A stretch of DNA of 64,000 bases from Candidatus Doudnabacteria bacterium (GCA_963837465.1 CAWINB010000001.1:11915-75914); one strand, 5' to 3'; numbered from the stretch's first letter, positions 28,120 to 38,235 are shown. The notes: generated by a model not told the origin, from the letters alone. Numbers and translations are program-made.

Positions 28120-28148
28120 TTGACAAATTGTGGTATTTTTCCTAATAT
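28120..28148 (+). promoter_or_regulatory. Sigma70-like promoter of the atp operon (TTGACA -17- TAATAT), preceded by a palindrome.
   Basis: TTGACA at 28120-28125, TAATAT at 28143-28148. Upstream IR ttgtcaag...cttgacaa (28091-28127). Confidence 0.5.
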
Positions 28149-28166
28149 TTAAGCGGAAATTCAGAT

Positions 28167-28427
28167 ATGGATGAAAATAAGCAACCCTATGATAACAACA
28201 AGGCAAAGGAAAAACAAAGAACCGTTGGTTTGCTTATGCTGGAAGCGGGCACTGAATTCGCCTTTTTGATAGCTGTGCCGTTAATAGCCGGAATTTTAGC
28301 GGGTAACTGGCTGGATAGTAAGTACAAACATCATTTTTTTATTATTATAGGAATTTTGCTTGGGATAACCATAACCTCAGTGGCGGTTTACTCCAGGGTA
28401 AAAGACTATAAGAAGATGCTCAAATAA
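28167..28427 (+). CDS. AtpZ/AtpI-like small membrane protein preceding atpB.
   Basis: 86 aa, two TM helices, located immediately upstream of atpB. Confidence 0.5.
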   Translation: MDENKQPYDNNKAKEKQRTVGLLMLEAGTEFAFLIAVPLIAGILAGNWLDSKYKHHFFIIIGILLGITITSVAVYSRVKDYKKMLK

Positions 28428-28428
28428 T

Positions 28429-29262
28429 ATGCTGTCACTCCCGCCGCTCGCGGCTGAACGAATTTTTAATATAGCTTCACTGCCCGTGACCAACACTATG
28501 ATTAACGCTTGGATCGCGACGATTTTTTTCGCCGTGTTCGCGTTTTTCTTAAATCTGGGCATAAAAAAATATTACCTGAACGACAGGGCGCCAAAGGGAG
28601 TGGTTAATTTTTTTGAAAGTATTTTGGAAGTATTTTTAAAACAGATTGATAACGTAACCAAGGACCGCCAAAAGACCTTAAAGTTTTTGCCGATCGTCGG
28701 CGGCATTTTTTTGTTTATTTTGGTCTGTAACTGGATGAGCCAAATCCCGGGGACGGGAAGCTTTGGATTATTCCGGGGAACAGACTTTATTCCCATTCTG
28801 CGGCCGGCCACCAGTGATTTGAACCTGACTCTTGCCATGGCCGTGTTCGTAGTCGTCCTTTCCCATATAGTCGGCGTGGCTACCATTGGATTTTTCAGGT
28901 ACGCCAACAAGTTTATTAAACTCGGGGATCTTTACCAGGCTGTTAAGTCTTTAAGTCCGTTAAAAATTTTTGTGGCTATGATTGAATTTTTTGTGGGGCT
29001 TCTGGAAATTATTTCCGAAGTTGCCAAAATGGTTTCGCTGTCTCTGCGTTTGTTCGGCAATATTTTTGCCGGCGAAGTTTTGTTAACGGTTATCGGGTCC
29101 CTTGTCGCGCTGTTTGTGCCGCTCCCGTTTTTGGCTTTGGAATTATTGGTGGGCATTGTCCAGGCTATGGTTTTTTCCCTGTTGACTCTGGTATACTTAA
29201 CCATAGCCACCACGCCGGCGCATCATACCGAAATACACGGGGTGGAGATGGAAGAAGCGTAA
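28429..29262 (+). CDS. atpB: F0F1 ATP synthase subunit a.
   Basis: LSLRLFGNIFAGE motif and multi-TM profile. Confidence 0.9.
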   Translation: MLSLPPLAAERIFNIASLPVTNTMINAWIATIFFAVFAFFLNLGIKKYYLNDRAPKGVVNFFESILEVFLKQIDNVTKDRQKTLKFLPIVGGIFLFILVCNWMSQIPGTGSFGLFRGTDFIPILRPATSDLNLTLAMAVFVVVLSHIVGVATIGFFRYANKFIKLGDLYQAVKSLSPLKIFVAMIEFFVGLLEIISEVAKMVSLSLRLFGNIFAGEVLLTVIGSLVALFVPLPFLALELLVGIVQAMVFSLLTLVYLTIATTPAHHTEIHGVEMEEA

Positions 29263-29267
29263 ATAAA

Positions 29268-29395
29268 TTGAACAAAATTAAATAAAATTGCCCAAAATTG
29301 AACATAATTAAGCTGCAGTCTAATTTTGTCAATTTTGGTCAATTATGCTCAATTTTGTCAATAATTAATCCCTCTTTGCAGGCAATAAGCAAACT
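29268..29395. repeat. Imperfect palindromic array of AAAATTGAAC / GTCAATTTT motifs in the atpB-atpE spacer.
   Basis: Left arm aaattgaacaaaatt...cccaaaattgaacat. Right arm gtcaattttggtcaattatgctcaattttgtcaataatt. Dyad axis near 29315. Confidence 0.4.
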
Positions 29396-36061: not shown

Positions 36062-36246
36062 AAAGATAATCAAAGGTTAATTCCCTTAATTATCCCATAG
36101 CCCAAATTCAAATCGAAAAATATGTTTTTGTCAGATTACGGCTCAATTAAAATCATTTTAAACTTTTATTAAAAATTAACCGGACACGAGTGAGGTCAAT
36201 ACAATAGAATTTTTAGTGACAAGTATACAACTAATCTGAAAACACT

Positions 36247-37698
36247 ATGAACAAAGGAACAATATCGCAAGTTATCGGGCCGGTGGTGGATGTTAAGTTC
36301 GAGAAGGATGTGCCGGGAATTTATAATGCGCTGGAGATAGAGATGTCGAGTGTCATTGCGAGGAGTGCACCCGACGAAGCAATCTCTTCCACAGATAAAA
36401 AGATTGCTTCGGATGCACTCGCAATGACACAAAAAGCGAGCAAGTTAACTCTCGAAGTACAGCAACAACTCCCCGGCGGCATTGTCCGCACGGTCGCTAT
36501 GTCATCGACAGATGGTTTAAAGCGTGGTATGGAAGTTATAGATACCGGCGCGGGAATATCGGTTCCGGTGGGTAAAGTAACGCTGGGACGCATTTTTAAC
36601 GTGCTGGGCGAGGCTGTGGACGGCGAGCCTACGCCGGAATCGGACAAAAAATACACCATCCACCGTCCGGCGCCAAAATTCACGGACCAATCCACCAAAA
36701 CCGAAATCCTGGAAACCGGAATTAAAGTTATAGATTTAATCTGCCCCATCCTTAAAGGCGGCAAGGTAGGTTTGTTCGGCGGCGCCGGCGTGGGAAAAAC
36801 CGTTATCATCCAGGAACTGATCAACAACATTGCCAAAGCGCACGGCGGAGTTTCCGTGTTTGCCGGAGTAGGGGAGAGAACGCGAGAGGGAAACGATCTG
36901 TACCACGAAATGAAGGACGCCAAAGTTTTGGATAAGCTGGCCATGGTTTTTGGCCAAATGAACGAACCGCCGGGAGCCCGCGCGCGCGTGGCTTTGTCCG
37001 GACTTTCCATGGCCGAGTATTTCCGCGACGAGCAAAACCAGGATGTCCTGATGTTTATAGACAACATTTTCCGCTTTACCCAGGCCGGTAGCGAAGTATC
37101 CGCTCTTTTAGGTCGCATTCCGTCAGCTGTGGGATATCAACCGACGCTCGCAACCGAAATGGGCGAACTCCAGGAACGCATCACCTCCACCAATAAAGGC
37201 TCCATTACCTCCGTGCAGGCAGTGTACGTGCCTGCCGACGACTTAACCGACCCGGCGCCGGCCACAACTTTCGCGCACCTGGACTCCACGGTAACCTTGT
37301 CGCGCGCGTTAACAGAAATCGGCATTTATCCGGCCGTGGATCCGCTGGATTCCACATCCACAATTCTTGACGCCAACATTGTTGGCCGGGAGCATTACGA
37401 AGTGGCCCGCGGCGTGCAAAAGACACTGCAGCGCTATAAAGATTTGCAGGACATTATAGCGATTTTGGGCATGGAAGAATTGCCGGAAGAGGATAAAGTC
37501 TTGGTCGGCCGCGCCCGAAAAATCCAGCGCTTCCTTTCCCAGCCGTTCCACGTAGCCGAAGTCTTTACCGGCGCGCCCGGAAAATTTGTTTCGCTGAAAG
37601 ATACGATTAAATCTTTTAAAGAAATATTAGATGGTAAGCATGACGACAAGACGGAAGCAATGTTTTACATGAAGGGCGGAATAGATGAGGTAAAATAA
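36247..37698 (+). CDS. atpD: F0F1 ATP synthase subunit beta carrying one in-frame palindromic-element insertion near the N-terminal barrel.
   Basis: Walker A GGAGVGKT, 483 aa. Insert [30 protein letters not shown] between ALEIEM and [11 protein letters not shown]. Confidence 0.95.
36352..36428. repeat. Palindromic element copy (77 bp) inside atpD, in frame, same orientation.
   Basis: GTCATTGCGAGGAGTGCACCCGACGAAGCAATCTCTTCCACAGATAAAAAGATTGCTTCGGATGCACTCGCAATGAC. Confidence 0.8.
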
Positions 37699-37708
37699 TA
37701 GCGGCTAG

Positions 37709-37783
37709 CGTTTAGTGATTAGCGTTTAGCGTTTAGAAGCCGCTATGCTAAACGCTAAACGCTATACGCTAAACCCTAATCAC
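37709..37783. repeat. Long near-perfect hairpin built from CGTTTAG/CTAAACG repeats between atpD and atpC.
   Basis: ggctagcgtttagtgattagcgtttagcgtttag aagccgctatg ctaaacgctaaacgctatacgctaaaccctaatcacc, ~33-bp stem. Confidence 0.6.
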
Positions 37784-37785
37784 CT

Positions 37786-38235
37786 ATGACCCTAGATTTT
37801 CAACTCGTTACCCCCGAAAAAACCGTTTTGTCCCAAGAACTGGTGTCTTTAACCTGCCCGACCAACCTTGGCTACATTACTATTTTACCAGGCCATGAGC
37901 CTCTAGTGGCGACTTTGGCGCCAGGGGAAATCCATACAAGGTCATCTGCCGGACAAGACTCTTATATTTTTGTTTCCGGCGGATTTGCGCAGGTAAACCC
38001 CGGCAGCCAGGTTATTGTATTGGCCGATCAGGCCGAGCACCATTACGAAATAGACGAACAAAAGGCCGAGGAGGCAAAGCAGAAGGCGCAAAAGGAGCTG
38101 GCCGAGCGCGGAATGTCTTCGGAAGAATACGCTTCGGTTTCAGCCTCACTTGAAAAAAGTCTGGCGAGGCTGGATGTAAAGCGCAGGCGTTCCGGCCGGC
38201 GCTCTCAGATAATCCAGCCGGATAATTTGGAATAA
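37786..38235 (+). CDS. atpC: F0F1 ATP synthase subunit epsilon (with basic C-terminal extension).
   Basis: N-terminal beta-sandwich (LVTPEKTVLSQELVSL...ILPGHEPL) then helical hairpin. Operon position. Confidence 0.85.
   Translation: MTLDFQLVTPEKTVLSQELVSLTCPTNLGYITILPGHEPLVATLAPGEIHTRSSAGQDSYIFVSGGFAQVNPGSQVIVLADQAEHHYEIDEQKAEEAKQKAQKELAERGMSSEEYASVSASLEKSLARLDVKRRRSGRRSQIIQPDNLE

Follow-up and report, generated by a model that had tools for sequence, protein, structure and literature searches.

The Ssn proteins, single-domain GIY-YIG nucleases of ~94 aa (cd10448), bind and cut single-stranded DNA (ssDNA) next to hairpin repeats termed NTS/SRM (Chenal et al. 2025, Nat Commun, PMC11893778). 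Opening with CGTCAT, the repeats border the ssn gene at either end and are scattered over the genome; SRM repeats are abundant in Rickettsia and Wolbachia, only 2% of NTS are intragenic, and Chenal et al. note that the layout of ssn and its repeats is like that of an insertion sequence (IS) (PMC11893778). Here we describe a GIY-YIG gene resembling these, flanked by a long palindromic element, in the ATP synthase (atp) operon of a 64,000-nt stretch of DNA recorded under Candidatus Doudnabacteria (the window), and we report that further copies of the element lie in frame inside the genes for the gamma and beta subunits. A second point of reference is provided by the Rickettsia palindromic elements (RPE), repeats of ~100 nt that Ogata et al. 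reportedly described in 2000 in frame in protein-coding genes, essential ones included.

Sites of the element were sought by direct and inverted repeat detection, motif searches and an unfiltered nhmmer profile over the 64-kb window. A palindrome of about 81-107 nt proved to have exactly five sites. None lies outside the 10-kb operon and each scores best on the + strand: the GIY-YIG gene has a half arm before it and a full copy after it, atpG holds two copies and atpD one (Table 1). The full copies fold as long, imperfectly paired hairpins with energies of -33 to -50 kcal/mol and z from -3.8 to -8.3. All three intragenic copies (87, 87 and 81 nt) are free of stop codons, enter at codon offset 1 and encode a peptide of the form VIAR...EAIS...KIAS...LAMT; one frame per element strand is always closed by the TGA of the ATGAC terminus. 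In alignments with the eight closest relatives, gamma and beta are conserved apart from cleanly inserted segments of 27-29 aa, opposite which all relatives have a gap, and such inserts were found in none of 50 other Patescibacteria atpD/atpG sequences. The insertions, their frame, their shared orientation and their clustering near the cassette formed by the nuclease gene and its repeats are direct observations. These in-frame hairpins are the most unusual feature of the operon, and they had been overlooked in an earlier account of the window prepared from its nucleotides alone (the sequence-only reading), which correctly recorded the palindrome before atpH and missed the copies in atpG and atpD as well as the half arm before the GIY-YIG gene. 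We regard it as likely that the operon is intact and carries three layers of passenger DNA, namely the hairpin cassette with its solo hairpins, a set of small open reading frames (ORFs) and an IS.

The inserts appear to coincide with places at which the two proteins vary. Against solved chains in the Protein Data Bank (PDB), gamma aligns as residues 1-58, 96-218 and 248-337 and beta as residues 1-34 and 66-150, the breaks falling at the inserts; the N-terminal barrel match of beta spans residues 6-101 against a 69-position profile. In the solved gamma and beta chains these positions correspond to short connecting segments whose length varies between species, the beta subunit of Bacillus PS3 being ~9 residues longer at the insert site than that of Fusobacterium. 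A single-sequence AlphaFold model of gamma was unusable (pLDDT 33.7). A protein search with the 58-aa concatenated insert peptide returned 16 word-sharing candidates, none with E<=10, so the exact translated form is rare in predicted proteins. The multiple-of-three lengths and well-defined hairpin ends might also be expected if the inserts were removed by RNA-level excision or intein-like splicing to leave canonical mature subunits, and intervening sequences are known in the rRNA genes of Patescibacteria. However, an Rfam scan of the whole window gave four tRNAs only, with no match in the operon, introns and inteins are much longer than the inserts, no bacterial splicing machinery is known for such hairpins, and preservation of the frame would be needless if the inserts left the RNA. 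Excision is therefore very improbable in our view.

The nuclease at the centre of the cassette has 4696 homologues, and the family alignment shows a conserved core of ~95 aa. In all seven contexts examined (the window, L204, L202, L203, L206, L207 and L208) the repeat flanks the GIY-YIG gene, a pairing that is observed family-wide. The usual layout consists of a half arm a few nucleotides before the ATG, the gene, and a full palindrome after the stop codon, the gene being co-oriented with its neighbours; the half arm stands at the same spacing upstream of the homologues in L204, L202 and L203. Specifically, in L204, from the atp operon of another metagenome-assembled genome (MAG), a 77%-identical gene directly follows atpF, with the repeat on the 5' side only since the contig ends, and in L202 (5961-6438) a 75%-identical cassette of half arm, gene and full palindrome lies between rplB and rpsS of the S10 operon, followed by an uncharacterised 180-aa ORF. 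Further homologues lie near hisS (L203), in a type IV pilus operon (L206) and after hsdR (L208). Downstream of the homologue in L207 (3400-3975), five or more copies of the element, partial or full, were also noted in an array.

The window protein resembles Ssn in consisting of a single GIY-YIG domain of 98 aa, for about 94 aa in Ssn, and in having hairpins on both sides of its gene; its GIY and YIG motifs are not intact. It carries Y9C, at the tyrosine of GIY, and G22E, at the glycine of YIG, both at positions at least 90% conserved in 15 aligned family members. No NCBIfam match was obtained, and the sole PDB match was the UPF0213 protein 1ZG2 (E=0.097). The gene had been recognised in the sequence-only reading, which placed it at 30507-30802; position 30507 is out of frame and the true ATG lies at 30506. 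Just upstream of the cassette, at 30391-30438, stands a second hairpin, CGTCATCCCGGA...TCCGGGATCC, with a 25-nt loop and a modest fold (-11.2 kcal/mol, z=-2.2); in head and stem it is similar to the consensus of the Neisseria NTS, CGTCATTCCCGCG...GCGGGAATC.

Misassembly would offer a trivial origin for these insertions, whether by the wrong threading of repeats into atpG and atpD or by inclusion of an IS from a minority variant. The genome is a metagenome assembly, Logan contigs break at the repeat copies, and at ~18.6 kb two unrelated sequences meet within the window. Nevertheless, window positions 33789-35952 are matched at 99.95% in a Logan assembly made independently from run ERR10755945, which covers element copy 2 in atpG with unique flanks as well as the left IS junction. 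The cassette, Y9C and G22E included, is reproduced by another independently assembled Logan contig (L081), and the identical GIY-YIG protein is on record from a 699,532-bp NCBI contig as well as from a Logan contig. As the flanks of all three in-gene copies moreover continue the frame of conserved proteins, we give an assembly artefact hardly any credence.

Beyond the window, an exact-pattern scan found the element arm in at least 120 metagenome contigs, from hosts of 37-65% GC. We recovered 56 full copies of 66-126 nt, in which both boxes are nearly invariant (outer pair GTCATTGCGAGG / CTCGCAATGAC, inner pair CGAAGCAATCT / AGATTGCTTCG) and the spacers and loops are variable. RNAalifold on 32 copies, in which the left arm is fixed by how the copies were found, revealed scarcely any covariation, the two arms being all but invariant. 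At least two more low-GC contigs have in-frame copies within plausible genes: L141 in an ORF like class I LysRS, L140 in one like a methyltransferase. The former, an 818-aa frame in a contig of 37% GC (L141:3-2456), has SLRGMHQTVRPVAISEIASSSVSRRTPRND as its in-frame copy, and an apparent second, different repeat-encoded segment (RIRHSGKRSQ...SGQARMT) was noticed in the same frame. Copies were also seen in or next to atp operons of other Patescibacteria, at L008:7861-7968 (atpH-atpA spacer) and at L018:11900-12026. A literature search for DNA and peptide strings of the element returned nothing relevant.

The hairpins could instead be kept for their usefulness, as RNA structures tuning mRNA stability, processing or translation rate, or as regulatory protein loops. 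Chloroplast gamma carries a regulatory insertion, and its alignment with the window protein as a single unbroken stretch across the second insert is consistent with an insertion-tolerant site. The folds are also very stable, all copies share one orientation, and further hairpins occupy the atpE-atpF and atpD-atpC spacers. On the other hand, the same repeat is scattered through unrelated contexts of many organisms and is absent from atpG and atpD of 50 relatives, and its boxes are conserved as sequence without covariation, which is a better fit to a selfish element recognised by a protein than to a locally evolved regulator. We consider a useful role unlikely. As for the spacer hairpins, that between atpE and atpF is an imperfect inverted repeat with 37-nt arms (29739-29816), and that between atpD and atpC, a TAGCGTT heptad-repeat hairpin (31-32-nt arms, 81-87% complementary), fills its spacer (37699-37778) and, lacking a T tail, is not terminator-like.

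Table 1. Features of the atp operon and of the elements within it (positions in the 64,000-nt window)
Feature	Position	Strand	Evidence and remarks
Promoter-like site TTGACA-17-TAATAT	28120..28148	+	10/12 consensus positions, consensus match only; upstream of operon
atpI-like small membrane protein (ATPase_gene1)	28167..28427	+	PF09527, E=1.8e-8
atpB (a subunit)	28429..29262	+	PF00119, E=9e-40
atpE (c subunit)	29526..29744	+	PF00137, E=8e-18
atpF (b subunit)	29829..30383	+	PF00430, E=5e-22
Left half arm of element	30452..30499	+	Repeat family D7; nhmmer model positions 1-46, E=9e-8; just upstream of GIY-YIG ATG
Single-domain GIY-YIG nuclease gene, 98 aa, Ssn-like	30506..30802	+	PF01541 as sole domain
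Full palindromic element	30803..30908	+	3' flank of GIY-YIG gene; fold -50.3 kcal/mol, z=-5.9; nhmmer E=1.6e-17
atpH (delta), 129 aa	30916..31305	+	PF00213, profile positions 53-172
Orphan 98-aa hydrophobic ORF (orf98)	31310..31606	+	Packed tightly between atpH and atpA
atpA (alpha)	31616..33118	+	PF00006, PF00306, PF02874
Four-helix-bundle '23S rRNA IVS' protein	33124..33531	+	PF05635, E=1.3e-38; TIGR02436, E=2.9e-37
atpG (gamma), 338 aa, two in-frame insertions	33552..34568	+	PF00231, E=3e-82; relatives 285-295 aa
Element copy 1 in atpG, 87 nt	33736..33822	+	Repeat family D1; fold -38.9 kcal/mol; translated as VIARRSASDDEAISPPDEKIASAALAMT
Element copy 2 in atpG, 87 nt	34216..34302	+	Repeat, alignment-gap and fold evidence; also in independent Logan contig L205
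120-aa ORF (orf120)	34570..34932	+	Truncated orphan ORF (117 aa originally) fused to 18 IS-derived codons
Target-site duplication, left copy, AGGTCAATAC	34866..34875	.	10 bp
IS4-family insertion sequence, 1317 bp	34876..36192	-	Perfect 21-bp terminal inverted repeats
IS4-family DDE transposase ORF (ATG at 36061)	34895..36073	-	PF01609 and PF14294; NF033592, 271.8 bits against cutoff 115
Target-site duplication, right copy, AGGTCAATAC	36193..36202	.	10 bp
atpD (beta), 483 aa, one in-frame insertion	36247..37698	+	PF00006, PF02874; relatives ~450-458 aa
Element copy in atpD, 81 nt	36350..36430	+	Fold -41.2 kcal/mol, z=-8.3
atpC (epsilon)	37786..38235	+	PF02823, PF00401

Genes were called by Pfam and NCBIfam profile scans of the ORF list, and all those named in the sequence-only reading were present in these scans. 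The operon lies entirely in the low-GC part of the window: GC content shifts from ~70% to ~40% near 18,590-18,610, and the low-GC side opens mid-gene in a lepA-like frame. Positions 1-18600 and 18600-64000 therefore come from different, unrelated records, the first from a high-GC organism and the second from a Patescibacteria contig. Two nearly identical direct repeats in the high-GC part (10966-11120 and 12121-12274), ~155 nt in two adjoining blocks with 95-100% identity and at a spacing of 1155 nt, may reflect tandem duplication of genes or domains.

An AtpA scan of 185,579 species genomes placed the operon among Patescibacteria MAGs, the top matches being L012 (82%) and then L001, labelled Candidatus Doudnabacteria (78%). 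These relatives have murI upstream and a CCA-adding-like enzyme downstream in common with the window; look-up of the exact AtpG protein found no record. All eight core subunits of an F-type ATP synthase (a, c, b, delta, alpha, gamma, beta and epsilon) were matched by Pfam in canonical order, and the gene order atpB-E-F-H-A-G-D-C is identical in 50 relatives. The eight ORFs are all open, and their translations keep the P-loops (Walker motifs) of alpha and beta, the glutamate of the c subunit and the arginine of the a subunit. Judging from these translations, the operon atpI-B-E-F-H-A-G-D-C probably encodes an intact and functional F-type enzyme. A second, inverted atpD-atpC, with the same identity values as the primary copy, was noticed at the end of one related locus (L007:16238-17478) and represents either an inverted duplication or an assembly artefact.

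The sequence-only reading had described the locus as an unusual erosion of an essential operon. Decay of this kind would proceed through IS polarity, a truncated delta subunit and foreign insertions that turn the ATP synthase genes into pseudogenes. As that reading had stated, a transposase on the opposite strand parts atpG from atpD-atpC, and the IS borders, the target duplication and the restored ORF can all be read in the sequence. That reading had missed the terminal inverted repeats and the target duplication, and also that the 120-aa ORF is a chimera joining the older 117-aa ORF to IS sequence. The transposase scores above its family cutoff, and the distant blastn matches of the element are all annotated as IS4-family transposases. 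With its perfect terminal inverted repeats and its target-site duplication AGGTCAATAC, which occurs twice in the window and on both occasions exactly borders the IS, the element is a genuine, recent insertion. When the IS and one copy of the duplication were removed in silico, a 117-aa ORF was restored that starts 1 nt past the atpG stop and whose TGA overlaps the atpD ATG (ATGA). The IS cut away the last 15 codons of this orphan ORF and, from the lost ATGA overlap, likely broke its translational coupling with atpD. Because of the position of the IS, atpD-atpC would need either read-through or a promoter at the IS end. The scan found no terminator-like site on the + strand inside the IS, a point against decay, and the promoter for atpD-atpC that the sequence-only reading had called for has candidates facing atpD at 36128-36156 and 36176-36210, though both are weak consensus matches.

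Two side observations bear on mobile elements in this region. A second IS-like element directly follows a three-tRNA cluster (39951-41575); it has 45-nt inverted repeats (87% complementary) and encloses a 289-aa ORF with an N-terminal zinc-ribbon-like motif, and appears IS1595-like by eye. The palindromic element was also considered as a miniature inverted-repeat transposable element of the resident IS4 and rejected as such, since its ends are unrelated to the IS4 inverted repeats and no duplication is visible at any copy.

The delta subunit, from which the ~50 canonical N-terminal residues are missing, would seem a further sign of decay, and the sequence-only reading had suspected truncation at a palindromic element adjoining the start of atpH. 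A full copy of the element does end ~8 nt before atpH. The protein aligns to residues 51-177 of a solved 178-aa delta and does not attain the ~175-180 aa and complete N-terminal bundle of a full-length delta/OSCP. However, atpH in ~38 related Patescibacteria operons is mostly 126-137 aa long, with a few at 141-166 aa where the first in-frame start sits further upstream; the frame is open just a few codons upstream of these genes, and atpF ends ~10 nt before atpH. In a Desulfuromonadales control, delta is 180 aa long. Truncation by the palindrome was rejected, since the short form recurs throughout the related operons, and on these comparisons a delta of ~130 aa is an ancestral trait of the lineage and not damage, a finding that the sequence-only reading had itself named as refuting its view. 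It suggests reduced attachment of the peripheral stalk as a lineage trait. A literature search found no paper on a short delta in Patescibacteria.

Profile scans bore out the description of the atp operon as interspersed with non-atp genes, and we surveyed 51 Patescibacteria atp operons for stretches of 260 nt or more separating neighbouring atp genes. Such gaps numbered 45, most commonly at atpG-atpD (16), atpA-atpG (8) and atpH-atpA (7). The 33 largest gap ORFs included four PF05635 intervening sequence (IVS) proteins, three PDDEXK_3 nucleases and two GIY-YIG proteins, as well as a cyclophilin, an NYN domain protein and a GerE regulator. Homologous passengers occupy different junctions in different genomes; the IVS-protein family, for instance, is found at other atp junctions in L008, L010 and L013, and the two top-matching relatives, L012 and L001, carry unrelated small ORFs in both the atpA-atpG and the atpG-atpD slot. 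Neither orf98 nor orf120 shows similarity to ORFs in the same slots of relatives. The former gave no Pfam or NCBIfam match, and a HMMER scan of 1.84 billion representatives returned only itself and one weak 70-aa match; the sole database match of orf120 was itself. From the gene content of the surveyed operons, small co-oriented passenger genes are the rule for this lineage.

Decay can now be weighed as a whole. The loss of the stop/start overlap at atpD, the 27-29-aa inserts in gamma and beta and the shortened delta are what it would predict. Against it stand the eight open frames with the Walker motifs, the c-subunit glutamate and the a-subunit arginine in place, the same short delta in relatives, the frequency of passenger ORFs in the atp operons of the lineage, and inserts that keep the frame and sit where alignments to solved chains break, probably in naturally variable loops. 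The supposed erosion is mostly ordinary for Patescibacteria, and the claim made for delta was wrong. We judge decay to be improbable and see the operon as probably functional and carrying selfish DNA rather than eroding. On present evidence decay, adaptive function, excision and misassembly all account for the locus less well than an intact operon with layered passenger DNA.

For that preferred explanation we propose the following course of events. The first layer comprises the cassette of half arm, 98-aa GIY-YIG gene and full palindrome (~30452-30908), together with three ORF-less copies of 81-87 nt in apparently variable regions of gamma (two) and beta (one), which would be translated as extra loops of 27-29 aa. 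The GIY-YIG protein, or a paralogue acting in trans, may recognise the conserved boxes on ssDNA and promote the copying of the hairpin into nearby exposed ssDNA. Spread through ssDNA is proposed by analogy with Ssn/NTS, IS200/IS605 and REP/RAYT, and the uniform orientation and preference for heavily transcribed operons fit such copying. In essential genes, selection would keep those copies that have a multiple-of-three length, lack stops and lie in tolerant loops, and the resident nuclease would since have decayed. The second layer is the small co-oriented passenger ORFs among the atp genes (the IVS four-helix-bundle protein, the 98-aa membrane orphan and the 117-aa orphan). The third is the recent IS4-family insertion: it shortened the 117-aa ORF, whose stop no longer overlaps the atpD start, and atpD-atpC would now be expressed by read-through across the IS or from a promoter at its end.

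Several results weigh against this explanation. The resident nuclease is probably inactive now, because of Y9C and G22E. Of 85 element copies from metagenomes, only two have a GIY-YIG gene within 400 nt, which means that mobilisation, if it occurs, would require action in trans. The hairpin copies showed neither a target-site duplication nor a target motif, and the published SRM pattern HGTCWYN(0-2)YYVSBRHN(0-5)WNVSBRGN(0-2)RNCYNB has one unrelated match in the window and none at the elements, which share only the HGTCWY/GTCAT head. Dating of the insertions is precluded by the distance to even the nearest relatives (AtpA 82%, AtpG 59%). The promoter scan was not enriched over shuffles (24 sites against 16 +/- 4.6).

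A broader proposal, which we put forward tentatively and regard as possible rather than probable, is that hairpin-bounded Ssn-type GIY-YIG cassettes are autonomous mobile elements that seed nearby ORF-less hairpins via ssDNA in heavily transcribed operons (atp, ribosomal protein, pilus), and that an in-frame copy, where a loop tolerates it, persists as a permanent peptide insert of an essential enzyme. If this were true, the puzzle of in-frame palindromic elements of the RPE type would be linked to a defined nuclease family, and the gamma and beta subunits of F1, with three independent insertions, would provide direct evidence for the mobility of such hairpins. Insertions in a rotor (gamma) and a catalytic (beta) subunit are concrete evidence for present or past mobility of the hairpins. 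Nature supplies 'empty' and 'filled' sites for comparison, and the nuclease with an ssDNA oligonucleotide carrying the repeat offers a simple test system. Those annotating genomes of candidate phyla should note that a repeat can encode an extra loop in a conserved protein and that a delta subunit of ~130 aa is a genuine trait of this lineage.

The locus can be set against described systems. The insertion between atpG and atpD differs from other IS4-family insertion sequences in nothing but its site, antisense within an essential operon. The 23S rRNA IVS protein matches its family strongly, and the family turns up again in atp operons of relatives, likewise as a small gene standing on its own; unlike its namesakes, it lies between atpA and atpG and not within a 23S rRNA gene, and no flanking repeats were seen beside it. 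The hairpins recall REP/BIME with RAYT and IS200/IS605 in that hairpin repeats flank a small nuclease or transposase gene, with a presumed ssDNA mechanism, a strand and orientation bias and no target-site duplication, whereas those enzymes have the HUH (Y1) fold in place of the GIY-YIG fold and REPs are extragenic by definition. With RPE the element shares palindromic repeats that lie in frame in coding genes, keep the ORF and add a peptide segment: all three in-gene copies are dispersed palindromes with an unbroken frame and a host protein conserved on both sides. It presumably belongs to a different sequence family, comes from a different phylum and is tied to a GIY-YIG cassette. Ssn/NTS is resembled in the ~95-aa single-domain GIY-YIG gene, the hairpin repeats on both sides, the GTCAT head, the solo copies clustering nearby and the IS-like layout. 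In contrast, the repeats described here are 66-126 nt long with a long-range outer stem and two boxes, for NTS hairpins of 20-50 nt, three copies in the window lie inside essential genes, the host is a Patescibacterium, and the window nuclease lacks the GIY tyrosine. By analogy, the system would operate as Ssn and its hairpins do, with solo copies acting in the manner of RPEs, and it is at most a candidate member of either family.

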